In this document: in pieces, positions 2,203-9,859 of the stretch | How positions within the stretch are numbered: position 1 is the stretch's first letter | Layout of the letters: each line of letters starts with the position of its first letter | Source of the DNA: Candidatus Helarchaeota ASGARD archaeon Hel_GB_B | Lineage (GTDB): Archaea > Asgardarchaeota > Lokiarchaeia > Helarchaeales > HEL-GB-B | Assembly: GCA_005191425.1 (NCBI GenBank) | Contig: SUPR01000114.1 | Location: forward strand, 1 to 9,859 | Direction of reading: 5' to 3' | DNA length: 9,859 bases | Program-made: the position numbers and the translations under genes | The notes under the pieces: generated by a model | Told to the model about the DNA's origin: nothing | Databases searched by the model: none | The model's input: only the letters and a program-made list of their open reading frames with translations

Positions 2203-2688
2203 ATGTGGGAAATAACCGAAGAAGAATTATTGAGATTAAAATGTCAACAATTGTTTGTACCGCTAATTTACTCAGAAGTTGTTGCTCGAATAATTGATAG
2301 ATGGCCAGATAATGTCGAAAAAAAATTAAGAGAATTCGGTAGAAGAATAGGAAAAGGTATTTTATCAATGTGGATTCCAAAGAACACTGATTCTGTTAAG
2401 TCTATAGTCCAAGAAACATACAAATTTCTTTTAAAACAAAAAGCACCTGTAGAAATGAAAAAAGATGGAAGGACATTGATTTTACGCGATAAAAAATGTA
2501 TTTTATGCTGGGAAGTTACAAATGCGAATTTTCATTATTGTACACCTTATGGAAGTCTTTTGGAAACTTTTGTAAATAAATGTAGGGAAACAAATCCGAA
2601 ATTACCAAAAATTTGGGTCGAAACTACGAAATCAAGAGCTAAGGGCGATAGTTATTGTGAACATGTAATCCACATTTTGGAAGAGTGA
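2203..2688 (+). CDS. V4R-domain / TRAPP-Bet3-fold-like protein (copy 1)
   Basis: Helix motif LREFGRRIGKGIL (G-x-x-I-G as in Bet3/V4R), followed by CILC, HYC and the C-terminal V4R-type signature VETTKSRAKGDSYCEHVI. A GTGA RBS-like motif lies upstream. Confidence 0.85.
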   Translation: MWEITEEELLRLKCQQLFVPLIYSEVVARIIDRWPDNVEKKLREFGRRIGKGILSMWIPKNTDSVKSIVQETYKFLLKQKAPVEMKKDGRTLILRDKKCILCWEVTNANFHYCTPYGSLLETFVNKCRETNPKLPKIWVETTKSRAKGDSYCEHVIHILEE

Positions 2689-2694
2689 TTTAAA

Positions 2695-3330
2695 ATGGCA
2701 GAACGAGAAAAAGTAGGCTGGTTTCAGAGATTTTTAGGCAATATTGGTAAGCATTTCTATTGGTGGAAAGCAAAAAAAATGAGTGCACTTATGATGACTT
2801 ATGACTTTTTAGAATGCGTAAGAATACTTGTAGAATTAAATAATAATGATATACCGGCTGCATTAGAAGATTTTAGAGAAATAGGAAAGTCCGCAGGTTA
2901 TACAGTAGCTACTGAATTGTTAGGCCCCGGTGAATTAATTTTTTCAAGAAATATCAAAGATGTCCCATTTATGTTAAAAGTGGCTTGGTTCATCTTTTTT
3001 GGAGAAGAGATAAAATCGATAAAATTTCATGACAAAACAGATACTGAACCTATTAAAATTACCTGGACTTTAGATAGGTGCATTTTCTGTGCAGCACTTA
3101 AAAAAGAAAAAGAGCTAGTATTTAACCGAGAAACTATGAAAACTGATGAAACTAAGTTGACTTATGGAAGTGTCGTGGCAGGTGCTATGGAAGGTGCTTT
3201 AAATGCAATTCTTGAATATGTAAAGAGCCCGTATTATGGAAAGATATATGAAACTAAATGTTTACAAGCAGGAGACCCATTTTCTGAATATACTGCATAT
3301 TTTTATGAAAAAGATTCAAATGAGAATTAA
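2695..3330 (+). CDS. V4R-domain / TRAPP-Bet3-fold-like protein (copy 2) with an N-terminal extension
   Basis: FREIGKSAG helix, CIFC, VVAGAMEGAL and YETKCLQAGDPFSEY are V4R-type motifs. Starts 6 nt after the copy 1 stop, with GAGTGA overlapping that stop, which suggests an operon. Confidence 0.85.
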   Translation: MAEREKVGWFQRFLGNIGKHFYWWKAKKMSALMMTYDFLECVRILVELNNNDIPAALEDFREIGKSAGYTVATELLGPGELIFSRNIKDVPFMLKVAWFIFFGEEIKSIKFHDKTDTEPIKITWTLDRCIFCAALKKEKELVFNRETMKTDETKLTYGSVVAGAMEGALNAILEYVKSPYYGKIYETKCLQAGDPFSEYTAYFYEKDSNEN

Positions 3331-3382
3331 TTATAGTTTGAATAATACTACAGAAAAAGAATTAACGACTAAAATAGATTAA

Positions 3383-3438
3383 AATTATAATCGAGATTTC
3401 TACGATTATATGGATATTAGAAAGTTAATTATAATCGA
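3383..3438. repeat. Three copies of TATAATCG (direct and inverted) between convergent genes
   Basis: AATTATAATCGA occurs at 3383-3394 and 3427-3438. TATAATCG (3386-3393) and CGATTATA (3403-3410) form an 8-bp inverted repeat. Confidence 0.55.
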
Positions 3439-3439
3439 T

Positions 3440-4108
3440 TTATTCATTAACAATTTGAATTACTCTATGAATATTAACCCAACCCTTTTTTTGTAGTTGC
3501 CTAATTATCATTTCAACTTTTAATTTAGGCAATTTAATTTTTTGTGCAATATCATCAACAGAATTTGTCCCATCGCATAATTCAAGTATCTTGGCAGTAT
3601 CGATCTTGAATTTTTCTTTATTTGTTATTTCTTTCATTAGGAAGGGCACTTTTCGAGCTCTACTTCGGTGTTTAACGACTTTCTTGGGTTCTTCTACTTT
3701 TTTTACAGCTGTCGTTTCAGTTATCCGTAATTCATTTGATATTGGTGAAATTTCTCCAATTAAAGAACTAATTTTTTGTGAAAATTCATTCATAATTTTC
3801 TTAAATGCTAATAATTGACCAATTGGACCTTTCTTAGAGTGAACTATGATTAGAAAGTTATTATCTGGCTTAAAAAATGCAAGGTTTACCCCACCAATTG
3901 GGATTGAGTAATCACCAAGCTGTAATAAATTAAAATTTTTAATTGTAAAATTTATAATATAATCTTTATAAGGTATCAACTCATTAGACATATACCTAAA
4001 TTTTCCATTAGCATCAATAATTCCTATATATGGCCTAGAAAACATTAATGAACCAAGTTTATTTGTTATATCTTTATTAATTTCATAAAATAATTGTTCC
4101 TCACTCAA
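3440..4108 (-). CDS. Roadblock/longin/profilin-like N-terminal domain plus C-terminal winged helix
   Basis: The N-terminal ~115 aa show an alpha-beta-beta-alpha-beta-beta-beta-alpha pattern (YIGIIDANGKFRYMS; YSIPI; LAFFK; FLIIVHS). A charged linker leads to VP...ILELCDGTNSVDDIAQKI...V..II..L..KGWV, a winged-helix signature. The CDS is well supported; the fold call comes from pattern recognition only. Confidence 0.8.
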   Translation of the reverse strand: MSEEQLFYEINKDITNKLGSLMFSRPYIGIIDANGKFRYMSNELIPYKDYIINFTIKNFNLLQLGDYSIPIGGVNLAFFKPDNNFLIIVHSKKGPIGQLLAFKKIMNEFSQKISSLIGEISPISNELRITETTAVKKVEEPKKVVKHRSRARKVPFLMKEITNKEKFKIDTAKILELCDGTNSVDDIAQKIKLPKLKVEMIIRQLQKKGWVNIHRVIQIVNE

Positions 4109-7164: not shown

Positions 7165-8415
7165 GTGGACATAACAATGTTCAGAAATGATTTAAAAATT
7201 CAAGAAATAATAAAAAAAGAATATAACGACCAAGAATTTATTAATTTGATAAAAAAAACAATAAAGGATACAACTGAACATAATTCTTTTTATAATGATA
7301 TAACAAAAAAATTAGAATTCAAAATCGATAATCTTAATAAAATAGATGACCTATTTGATATCCCTTTTATCCCCACGAATTATTTTAAAGAAAGTGCACG
7401 CTTATTTAAAAAATTACTAAAAGTCCCTGAAAGCTCTTTAATTCATTGGAATGTATCATCATGCACGAGTGGAGACCCTTCTTTAGTGGGAGTAAATAAA
7501 AATGATGATGAATTTCTAATTCAAATGAGTGAAAAATTATATTTAGATTTTATCCCTCGAGATTGGGAACGAGCCAAGATATATTGCTTTTCACCAAGTG
7601 CAAAAATGCTGAATAGAATTGTAATGAGATATACTAAAGTAAGGCCCATTCATGCATATACTAGTAATTTTTATTATGTCACTAAAAAGATGGCTAAATT
7701 AGAATATTTGATTAAATTTTCGATCTTGAAGGCATTAAAATCAATAATTGTAACGCGTAGTCTCGTAGGTGCTTTCGATGTTAATTCTAATTTAGTATTA
7801 AAAACAATTGAAAAAAACATTAAGAAACCTAAAGACAAACAAATTTATATAGCATTGGGTGGAGGAGTTCAACTCATTAAAAAATTTATTGATTTAATGA
7901 AAGAACGAAAAATTTCATATAATTTAGGCGATCAATTTGATGTAGTTAGCGGTGGTGGAGGATGGGGTGGACATAAAGCACAAATGAAAACGGAGCCTGT
8001 TAATAAAGAGGAATATGTTTCAGGTCTTGTTGAATTGTTTGGGACTGATTCTAAACAAATAATCGATATTTATGGGTTTACTGAAACGCCAATAATTTTC
8101 ATGGGCCATTGGTCAAAAAAATATAATGATTTTATAATGCATTGCCCACCATTTGCAAGAATTTTAGTACGGGACCCAGATAAATTAGAACCGCTAAAGA
8201 AAAAAGGAGATAGGGGGTTATTAGAAGTTATTACGCCATTTGGTGCAGAAGCCTCTGTAAATCATGCAATTTTAGTTGATGATTCAGTTGAATTAATTTC
8301 GATGGACAAATGCCCAGAATGTGGATATAAGGGTACAACATTTAGAATTCTTGGCAGAGTCGTAGATAAGGAAGGTATTGGATGTTCCTCAATAATTACA
8401 TGGTTAAACGGTTGA
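7165..8415 (+). CDS. luxE: LuxE-like acyl-protein synthetase (ANL adenylating superfamily); probable start ATG 7177
   Basis: IPFIPTNYFK, P-loop-like SSCTSGDPS, DIYGFTE, GLLEVITP...HAILVDD, CPECG and FRILGR are present. The C-terminal GCS (Cys codon 8383-8385) corresponds to the LuxE acylation site. GGGTGG RBS-like motif at 7163-7168. Confidence 0.87.
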   Translation: MDITMFRNDLKIQEIIKKEYNDQEFINLIKKTIKDTTEHNSFYNDITKKLEFKIDNLNKIDDLFDIPFIPTNYFKESARLFKKLLKVPESSLIHWNVSSCTSGDPSLVGVNKNDDEFLIQMSEKLYLDFIPRDWERAKIYCFSPSAKMLNRIVMRYTKVRPIHAYTSNFYYVTKKMAKLEYLIKFSILKALKSIIVTRSLVGAFDVNSNLVLKTIEKNIKKPKDKQIYIALGGGVQLIKKFIDLMKERKISYNLGDQFDVVSGGGGWGGHKAQMKTEPVNKEEYVSGLVELFGTDSKQIIDIYGFTETPIIFMGHWSKKYNDFIMHCPPFARILVRDPDKLEPLKKKGDRGLLEVITPFGAEASVNHAILVDDSVELISMDKCPECGYKGTTFRILGRVVDKEGIGCSSIITWLNG

Positions 8416-8549
8416 AATTAACTTTTTACACTCATTTAATTTCTTTTTAATTTTATCTTTTAACTATTTTTCAAAAAATACAGTCAAATTTCACTATTTA
8501 GATATAATTATCACTGATTATGAAAAACTATTTAATAATTCAAGGGTTT

Positions 8550-8584
8550 ATTCATTTTCCTATGCTAATAATAGGAAAATAAAT
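8550..8584. other. Hairpin just downstream of the tnpB remnant (IS right-end/omegaRNA element, or a terminator)
   Basis: ATTTTCCTAT (8554-8563) and ATAGGAAAAT (8571-8580) form a perfect 10-bp stem with a 7-nt loop. It extends by 3 more pairs after one mismatch. Confidence 0.6.
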
Positions 8585-8591
8585 TTTATAT

Positions 8592-9018
8592 CTATTCTAT
8601 AAGAACAGATACTGGCGTGACCCCAAACGCCTCTATCCCGTCCACCTTATCAAAAGTTTTCGGGACTACTTTTTCTATTATGTTGTAAGATGCGTCCACA
8701 CTTGCATTTATTAACCTCCCATTGGTTGTCCAGTATATTTTGCTCCATTGTATAGATTTTTTTCTATATGACAAAGGTATGATAGACGTTATTTTGATAT
8801 TTATTTATTTGATATTTTAAGGATGGAAGGTTCTGTTTGCAGCATTATCTCACATTTATACTTAGTTTTGGGGCTACCAATGCCCCATCTCGGCGCCATA
8901 GTTTTCCGATTCTCCCTCTAATAAGTGCCTTATGGTGTCACTTTATAGATTAAATGGAGAACAACAGTCCACCTTTTTTCCTGTGCAGTTTTATTCTATT
9001 TTGCTTAGCTTTTTACAT
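8592..9018 (-). pseudogene. tnpB: Decayed IS200/IS605-family tnpB (C-terminal half)
   Basis: Track ORF 8592..8774 reads YWTTNGRLINASVDASYNIIEKVVPKTFDKVDGIEAFGVTPVSV, matching the tail of one TnpB subfamily (..G.LINADVNGAYNI..K..P.AF..GIEG..V.PV). An upstream frame interrupted by stops gives NRIKLHRKK...HKA...IGKL...SINVR*CCKQNL, a weaker match to the HKAS...IG...IN.G...QNF segment. Confidence 0.75.
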
Positions 9019-9149
9019 CACCTCTTTATATTAATCTAAATCTAAACTTTTTTGCGTAAAACAAATCTATTATACATATAATACCTATCATGCGTATAAC
9101 CTATTAAAAGGTAATATAATCTATGTTTTTAAGGATATATATAGTTTTC

Positions 9150-9350
9150 GGTGAAAAGTAGGTGGCTTTTTTAGTCTATGGACTACATTAGCTGACTAAC
9201 TTTTTAAATATTTTCTGTTTTCTATTTTATGAGGGACAAGTCAAGTTCAATAAAATTATATAAATAAATGTATAGTAGCGAAACATTTTTAAAGGTAAAA
9301 AAAAGCGGTTTCTGACCAAAGATCTTTAATTTAAAGCCACTTTTTTCACC
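9150..9350. repeat. 201-bp segment bounded by bipartite inverted repeats (MITE-like or invertible element)
   Basis: The left arm GGTGAAAA-gtag-GTGGCTTT (9150-9169) is the reverse complement of the right arm AAAGCCAC-tt-TTTTCACC (9333-9350), in two perfect 8-bp blocks. Confidence 0.55.
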
Positions 9351-9594
9351 ATGATTTTTCGCACTCATTGCATTTTATAGACATTTTTACATAAATGGGA
9401 TATAAGATGAGTATAGACCAAGTTGAACTATTTAATAAATATTATAGGTATATAAATTTATATAAGGCAGAGTTATAAAATTTCTAGATAAATAGGATAT
9501 TAAAAAATGATTGATAATCTTAAATTTAAAATAATAACGAACGTAATTATCTATAAATTAAAAAGAGCATTTAAAAACACCACGATAAAATAGA

Positions 9595-9703
9595 AAAATG
9601 TGCAATAATAGTTAAATCTGGGGAGAAAATGCGCATTTTAAGTTAATAAAAATTAAAATGTCCAAATAAGAATATGGAGATAAAATAAAAAAATGAGCAG
9701 AAA
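9595..9703. promoter_or_regulatory. Four AAAATGN(G/C)CA motifs, including a perfect 14-bp palindrome
   Basis: Copies start at 9595, 9626, 9655 and 9690. The 9626-9639 copy, AAAATGCGCATTTT, is self-complementary. Confidence 0.4.
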
Positions 9704-9859
9704 TTCTAATTCCATAGGACTATTTTAATAAGATTTTATGTATATTAATACCTGTATCATACATACTTAATCTTTATGAGGACTTAAATACTGAGTTTTG
9801 CCCAAGACATATTATTATGATATATGTTATGAAGGATTTTTTGTGAGTTCCTATGCTTC

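Follow-up and report, generated by a model that had tools for sequence, protein, structure and literature searches.

Among the described guide RNAs of TnpB nucleases, the omegaRNA of ISDra2 has a scaffold of 116 nt that forms four stems and a pseudoknot, the latter by pairing of positions -5 to -3 with a segment ~100 nt upstream (PMC10097598). Three consecutive stem-loops, the first of which (the ‘nexus’) is pseudoknotted to the 3' end of the scaffold, have been described as universal in the omegaRNAs of IS605 and IS607 elements and in Cas12 guides (bioRxiv 10.1101/2023.11.20.567912). The ORF-less IS200/IS605 derivatives known as PATEs also encode omegaRNAs, and the use of TnpB in trans has been proposed for them (bioRxiv 10.1101/2023.03.14.532601). 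The motif NADXN has been described as a mark of the ‘derived’ TnpB clade, and DDE-associated TnpB branches with inverted terminal repeats, designated DDE-1 to DDE-6, have been reported in the same study (PMC10691335).

The locus analyzed here belongs to the Candidatus Helarchaeota archaeon Hel_GB_B and lies on a stretch of DNA (the window) that is the whole 9,859-bp contig C18 of a 3.54-Mb genome with 182 contigs and ~27% G+C. With a probability that we put at about 0.8, the segment 8666-8544 on the minus strand is both the right terminus of a TnpB transposon and its omegaRNA scaffold; in this copy, ~1 kb from the middle of tnpB is gone, and the leader, the gene start, the final 47 codons and the complete scaffold remain. 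Elements of this kind are known; the present one resides in an Asgard archaeon. Its features are given below, each with the evidence that defines it; L051 is a public contig with an intact copy.

8544-8666, minus strand: core omegaRNA-type scaffold (H1, nexus H2, H3, H4 and the pseudoknot 3' strand), 96% identical to L051 and matched by a covariance model.
8635-8666, minus strand: H1, GUCCCG (8666-8661) with CGGGAU (8640-8635), from RNAalifold.
8657-8653 with 8648-8644, minus strand: H1b, a 5-bp inner stem enclosed by H1, from RNAalifold.
8614-8631, minus strand: H2, the ‘nexus’ hairpin, GGCGU (8631-8627) with ACGCC (8618-8614), from RNAalifold.
8626-8619, minus strand: loop of H2, carrying the pseudoknot 5' strand GGGGU (8624-8620), from covariation.
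8543-8547, minus strand: pseudoknot 3' strand ACCC(U), partner of the H2 loop, from covariation.
8588-8612, minus strand: H3, an 11-bp hairpin across the tnpB stop codon (8592-8594), from the fold and the relatives.
8550-8584, minus strand: H4, a 14-bp guide-adjacent hairpin containing a perfect 10-bp stem, from the fold and the relatives.
8524-8543, minus strand: putative guide, in the flank that adjoins the 3' end of the scaffold, placed by the divergence of the copies after ...AAACCC.
8544-8566, plus strand: terminal repeat, read inward from the tip and overlapping the 3' strands of H4 and of the pseudoknot, from a repeat match.
8592-8738, minus strand: C-terminal remnant of tnpB, ~47 codons and the stop, from tblastn.
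8735-8845, minus strand: N-terminal remnant of tnpB, ATG at 8845-8843, ~36 codons with two stops, from tblastn and translation.
8846-9834, minus strand: non-coding leader of the element, from identity to L051.
9835-9859, plus strand: tip of a neighbouring IS6-like DDE element, the rest of which falls outside the contig, from a repeat motif with TCCTATGCT.

An earlier note, made from the letters of the window, had listed three inverted repeats near the tnpB 3' end, and direct reading and folding recovered all of them where the note had placed them: TCCCG (8661-8665) with CGGGA (8636-8640) in H1, GGCGT (8627-8631) with ACGCC (8614-8618) in H2, and the perfect 10-bp stem of ATTTTCCTAT (8554-8563) with ATAGGAAAAT (8571-8580). 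The stop codon of the remnant occupies 8592-8594, so that the 8554-8580 stem begins 11 nt past the stop, in agreement with the spacing given in the note. The fold lengthens this stem to 14 bp (8550-8563 with 8571-8584) and adds an 11-bp hairpin that the note had not listed, 8588-8598 with 8602-8612, across the stop codon. The predicted fold of the 162-nt RNA (8704-8543, minus strand) has an energy of -46.7 kcal/mol; dinucleotide shuffling gave -29.1 +/- 3.7 (z = -4.8), with 0 of 200 shuffled sequences folding as well. The series of hairpins is more than chance, as it is part of a repeat that occurs at least 13 times in the genome and covariation of its helices is seen in relatives. The resulting layout consists of four hairpins and a pseudoknot, in which the loop of the second hairpin pairs with the final five bases ahead of the flank.

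The relatives are the tnpB 3' ends of 22 elements from other Asgard genomes, with TnpBs 50-73% identical; their element ends were taken as the positions where an automatic alignment stops being conserved, rather than from insertion-site pairs. Together with four copies from the genome itself they form a 26-sequence alignment, A1, in which RNAalifold finds the helices H1, H1b and H2 with six pairs changed on both sides. H1 is paired in 97.7% of the cells and has two such pairs (C-G/U-A and A-U/G-C/C-G); these two-sided changes fall at synonymous third-codon positions (CCG...GAC vs CCA...GAU), so selection on the protein does not explain them. H2 is paired in 96.9% of the cells and has three pairs changed on both sides. 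The pseudoknot helix, formed by columns 84-89 and 185-190 of A1, is paired in 96.8% of the cells, and three of its six pairs change on both sides, the pair types being G-C/A-U (14:12), U-A/C-G/G-C (11:10:4) and G-C/U-A (24:2). Over the whole structure, pseudoknot included, 95.7% of the cells pair vs 80.5% in shuffles (0/500 reach the observed value), and controls in which the partner strand was slid by 1-3 columns give 30-48%. The equivalents of H3 and H4 were scored in a 12-member subfamily: the hairpin at the H3 position is paired in 95.3% of the cells and has two co-varying pairs, and the H4 equivalent is paired in 94.4%. Covariation in the relatives thus shows that the layout of the scaffold is conserved. 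The same columns also have a coding side, as the 3' strand of H1 and H2 (columns 59-94 of A1; 8614-8650) encode the TnpB C-terminal peptide (V)DGIExxG, the conservation of which may reflect constraint on the RNA no less than on the protein.

A search with covariance models, which the earlier note had proposed, gave a divided answer. A model built from the 22 relatives only, with the copies of this genome excluded (R1), matches 8562-8670 on the minus strand with 52.3 bits and an E-value of 2.8e-8, the sole significant match in the window, and it matches ten places in the genome. On the other hand, Rfam 15, searched at permissive thresholds with the window and five related loci, returned no relevant family. 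The covariation-supported structure and exact boundaries describe an Asgard TnpB guide RNA family that goes undetected by Rfam.

H2, H3, H4 and the pseudoknot, followed by the flank, correspond to the successive parts of the published omegaRNA plan, with H1 as an extra 5' stem. Together with the covariation and the R1 match, this correspondence bears out the candidate omegaRNA scaffold of the note. As in ISDra2 of Deinococcus radiodurans, the scaffold overlaps the tnpB 3' end and reaches the right end of the element, the core measures ~120 nt and has several stems, the predicted guide is read from the flank, and the bases just before the guide form a pseudoknot with a hairpin loop ~80-100 nt upstream. 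The two systems differ in that they share no sequence similarity, in the archaeal host, in the NADVN motif of the Helarchaeota family in place of DRDXN, in the lack of a Y1 TnpA and of a TTGAT-type TAM here, and in the Helarchaeota element end, which is an inverted repeat with a target duplication. The likeness to the IS607 omegaRNAs lies in the nexus loop that pairs with the scaffold 3' end and in the two further stem-loops followed by the guide; in addition, a serine-recombinase gene lies upstream in another copy of this genome (C99) and in the relative L036. Unlike IS607 elements, the window copy and L051 have no serine recombinase, adjoin an IS6-like DDE gene and carry a ~1.1-kb non-coding leader.

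BLAST of 8416-9859 against the contigs of the genome revealed at least 13 copies of the 124-nt module 8666-8543 (minus strand), the stretch ~8543-8690 being matched in 13 places. For seven of the 13 copies the contig begins within the repeat itself, at a point ~135 nt into it, which is the pattern expected of a k=141 assembly breaking on a multi-copy element, and public contigs related to the element bear k141 names. For the annotation of this genome, the element explains a number of “hairpin islands” and breaks between contigs. The note had also advised an alignment with intact copies to place the right end; in the alignment of the 13 copies, the sequence is common up to ...GGAAAATGAATAAACCC (...AAACCC) and diverges completely after it. 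Contigs from four metagenomes likewise diverge just before 8543, and the summed metagenome depth over 8494-8691 is raised 20- to 50-fold. The first base of the flank, at 8543, is T in 12 of the 13 copies; it stands outside the element, the right end of which is at 8544 (CCC), and its recurrence could reflect a requirement of the RNA. That the element ends at the CCC follows from the 8-bp duplications described below, which come directly after ...AAACCC.

Because the 13 copies and the metagenome contigs diverge only at ~8543, all the stems are inside the element. The note had named a position of the 8554-8580 stem beyond the IS boundary as a finding that would overturn its reading, and the stem lies on the inner side. 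The same evidence bears on the idea that the convergent luxE-like gene is terminated by this stem: the stem is situated ~140 nt downstream of the luxE-like stop (8415), but it is present in all copies of the repeat, beside unrelated genes and within the element boundary, which leaves this explanation with hardly any credibility.

The divergence point also predicts that the guide is taken from the flank just below ~8543 on the minus strand, in accordance with the origin at roughly 8510-8550 suggested in the note. It would begin in the 3' flank of the luxE-like gene, 128 nt past the stop of that gene. The note had further proposed to search the flank against the genome for a target, which yielded only one exact 16-nt match (18 nt in all), in a coding region of contig C181; since ~0.035 such matches are expected by base composition and the two sites have no common context, it was treated as chance. 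Four metagenome DNA runs were compared with 7900-9859; the occupied site was seen in two of them, and none of the four showed an insertion-free allele or a contig that bridges the element; the guide may thus be left without a target. A same-genus genome was considered as an empty-site reference and discarded, its luxE-like gene being only 70% identical. A TAM was not derivable from 11 left flanks, which are simply A/T-rich and have no conserved motif.

The nature of the right end became apparent from comparison with another mobile element of the genome, of ~1.2 kb and encoding a DDE transposase, all assembled copies of which are broken. Its protein matches PF13610 above the cut-off (1.3e-14), and its best NCBIfam match is IS6 (NF033587) at 57.5 bits, under the cut-off of 125. 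The left and right 23-bp terminal repeats of this element agree at 20 of 23 positions, and positions 8544-8566 of the window share 15 of 23 bases with its right repeat, among them the 9-mer TCCTATGCT, which is equally far from the tip in both. Three insertions are bordered by 8-bp direct duplications, located outside the IS6-like repeat and after ...AAACCC: TTATTTTT around a ~300-bp element on C93, ATTGGACA around a ~300-bp element on C119, and TTACTGAA, split between the starts of contigs C140 and C110; by our estimate, ~0.01 such 8-bp matches are expected by chance. The two ~300-bp elements (approximately C93:42945-43233 and C119:493-769) are gene-less, and each of them, within its duplication, consists of ~137 nt of the IS6-like right end and the last ~160 nt of the tnpB element, which include the whole omegaRNA scaffold. 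The right end of the tnpB element is therefore an IS6-like terminal repeat with 8-bp duplications and not an IS200/IS605 cleavage motif; in place of the IS200/IS605 insertion signature, a conserved TAM without duplication, there are 8-bp duplications and left flanks without a motif.

The other side of the element also adjoins IS6-like sequence. In L051, the junction equivalent to 9835-9859 follows a 367-aa DDE gene. An initial model of the element, with the left end at 9515 and a repeat designated ‘X’ as that end, was abandoned, as homology to L051 reaches the contig end; the comparison with L051 identifies repeat ‘X’ as the 3' end of the IS6-like DDE element. A small ORF within this repeat was rejected as a gene of its own, since it has no Pfam match alone and is explained as the C-terminus of the DDE protein. 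On contig C9 (51965-53013), the N-terminal part of the DDE gene is joined directly to approximately codon 130 of tnpB (L051:65-302 and 2714-3518). This join amounts to a ~2.4-kb deletion relative to L051; with it, tnpB and the DDE gene share a strand in at least three loci.

The search for a Y1 transposase (PF01797) gave no match in the genome, which is 93.7% complete, although control genomes were matched, and no serine recombinase was found in the window or L051; the serine-recombinase gene is a pseudogene beside C99 and an ORF upstream in L036. It is most likely that the IS6-like DDE transposase, and not a Y1 or serine TnpA, moves the TnpB family here, because the terminal 23 nt pair with the IS6-like ends and give 8-bp duplications. 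The family is thus like DDE-1 to DDE-6 in that TnpB rides a DDE transposon with inverted terminal repeats, that the tnpB 3' end lies <250 bp from the terminus and that solo TnpBs would be mobilised in trans. It is unlike them in the transposase, which is IS6/IS240-like here, whereas IS630 is the family named for those branches (PMC10691335). We found no description of an IS6-like case of DDE-associated TnpB, though the lineage may itself belong to one of the six branches.

The terminal repeat raises the question whether the hairpins are only a DNA-level transposase-binding structure of the transposon end, with no guide RNA. Such a function would agree with the inverted repeat in the terminal 23 nt and its 8-bp duplications; yet a short repeat suffices for a DDE transposase, whereas H1, H2 and the long-range pseudoknot lie 70-120 nt inside the element, the helices co-vary in relatives whose termini lack this repeat and fit the published omegaRNA plan, and the genome, 93.7% complete, yielded no transposase of the hairpin-reading Y1 type. 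We consider an exclusively DNA-level role very improbable and retain the omegaRNA scaffold as the explanation of the hairpins.

The note had recognized a remnant of the tnpB 3' end, and tblastn confirms it: the C-terminal remnant is 67% identical to a 268-aa open TnpB fragment on contig C9 and 55% identical to residues 351-396 of L019, a 396-aa relative. Its RuvC-III motif reads NASVD in place of NADVN, so that the catalytic Asp is lost. At the other end, 8785-8735 matches residues 16-32 of the TnpBs of relatives, and the stub that starts from the ATG at 8845 with MLQTEPSILK... parallels the intact N-terminus MLLTERIILK.... Positions 1309-2368 of L051 align with 9739-8735 of the window and positions 3374-3518 with 8687-8543; the part of L051 from 2368 to 3374 is missing from the window copy, with the junction near 8735-8738, and this gap means that ~1 kb of mid-gene tnpB is missing. 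As judged from these alignments, the damage to tnpB is a clean internal deletion of ~1 kb that joined approximately the first 36 codons (8845-8735) to approximately the last 47 (8738-8595).

The note had contrasted a well-preserved 3' part with a stop-riddled upstream part. The first half of this contrast holds, in that the 3' part is structurally intact; the second does not, as what lies upstream is an internal deletion and, for the most part, the natural non-coding leader of the element, of ~1.1 kb, instead of a stop-riddled ORF. Positions 1309-2128 of L051 are 97.9% identical to 9739-8925 of the window, the leader is ~99% identical to L051 over 8954-9834 (98-100% per 100 nt from 9859 to ~8954), and the leader of L051 itself has stops in all six frames. 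Two coding interpretations of the leader were rejected: all three stop codons occur in every frame, which speaks against an alternative stop-codon assignment, and tblastn with TnpA gives no match that would indicate a decayed serine-recombinase gene. In L051, the leader (1153-2260, ~1.1 kb) fills the interval from the neighbouring DDE element to the start of tnpB, and some of its 150-nt windows fold with z of -3.6 to -5.7; the leader in the window has a long hairpin at ~9290-9354. At 8811-8892, contigs of three metagenomes skip 80 nt, a length variant at the junction of the gene stub and the leader.

Like the PATEs, this copy is non-autonomous: it retains its ends together with the guide-RNA scaffold and would have to rely on a TnpB made elsewhere. 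The window copy is unlike them in that it keeps the leader and the ORF stubs, and the minimal forms on C93 and C119 are unlike them in that the scaffold end is joined to an IS6-like repeat end and 8-bp duplications are present.

A potential source of TnpB is provided by L051, which encodes an intact 402-aa protein with the motifs GIDLG, DESHTSK and NADVN; it matches NF040570 (guided_TnpB) with 195 bits against a cut-off of 100, and its product on record carries Pfam OrfB_IS605 and a Cas12f1-like TNB domain. The downstream flank of L051 is 100% identical over 4,069 nt to contig C95 of the genome, which places the intact TnpB in the same population, at a locus where the assembly broke. Given an intact TnpB at another locus of the population, use of the scaffold RNA in trans by an L051-type TnpB is possible, if unproven. 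Three loci of the genome (C115:28470-30481, C16:7910-9921 and C5:1-1708) encode a different family of TnpB, with PF07282 scores of 80-85 bits; these proteins have no match to the C9-type protein at E < 1e-3, and the loci have no match to R1.

Comparison with L051 also shows the state of this scaffold. The core 8543-8666 is identical at 119 of 124 positions (96%), and the 38 nt just upstream (8667-8704) have 12 differences (68% identity). All five substitutions keep or create pairs: G.U becomes A-U at 8657, U-A becomes U.G at 8646, a possible G.U becomes U-A at 8602 and 8598 jointly, and at 8577 the C.A mismatch of the family, carried by most other copies, becomes U-A. This pattern of identity is consistent with a constraint on the RNA and equally with recombination among copies, because the window copy is a mosaic with respect to L051 (leader 99%, gene stub ~75%, scaffold 96%).

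The mosaic is the starting point of the main rival explanation, according to which the copy is an inert but young fossil, young or recently overwritten by recombination, that has its scaffold by descent and is neither transcribed nor used. In the 13-copy alignment, every variant base but that at 8646 occurs in other copies, and the ORF is gutted and its catalytic Asp lost, all as such a fossil would have it; what the fossil does not lead one to expect is that 5/5 differences in 124 nt preserve pairing next to 38 nt diverged by 32%, that the leader, and presumably the promoter with it, is retained, and that an intact TnpB occurs in the same population. We regard inertness as a serious possibility, albeit one that is more probably wrong than right. 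Most likely, the locus is a non-autonomous derivative still able to supply the scaffold and guide (8543 to ~8524) to the TnpB of intact copies. Transcription would then proceed from the putative retained tnpB promoter region (no archaeal promoter was identified) through the 250-nt stub, the scaffold and ~16-20 nt of the flank; TnpB from an intact copy would bind and trim this RNA, and the complex would cut insertion-free alleles of the site, the repair of which would copy the element back, as is thought for ORF-less PATE elements. The locus illustrates that a destroyed nuclease gene can coexist with a structurally perfect scaffold, which, with an intact nuclease elsewhere, is a set-up for the use of guides in trans.

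The usual rationale of TnpB homing fits less well here, since IS6-type transposition does not leave behind an empty donor site free of scars. A wider reading, which we advance tentatively and at somewhat short of even odds, is that the last hairpin and the pseudoknot strand are at the same time the inverted repeat recognised by the IS6-like DDE transposase; that this transposase spreads full, gutted and minimal, ~300-bp, elements; that each insertion makes a new guide starting with its own 8-bp duplication; and that TnpB, in the absence of a scarless empty donor after IS6-type movement, acts on uninserted homologous alleles (homing or drive) and not in excision repair. The overlap of the scaffold with the IS6-like repeat, together with the duplications, makes a concrete, testable example of a single sequence that is used by an RNA-guided nuclease and by a DDE transposase alike.

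Two further regions of the window may be mentioned. At 2203-3330, two adjacent ORFs (161 and 211 aa) have weak Pfam matches to TRAPP components, with E-values of 6e-4 and 6e-3, below the cut-off. At 333-1040 there is a second, decayed IS6-like DDE element, the terminal repeat of which starts at 333; its transposase fragments, 778-383 and 1040-849 on the minus strand, are 62-77% identical to the DDE protein of L051.
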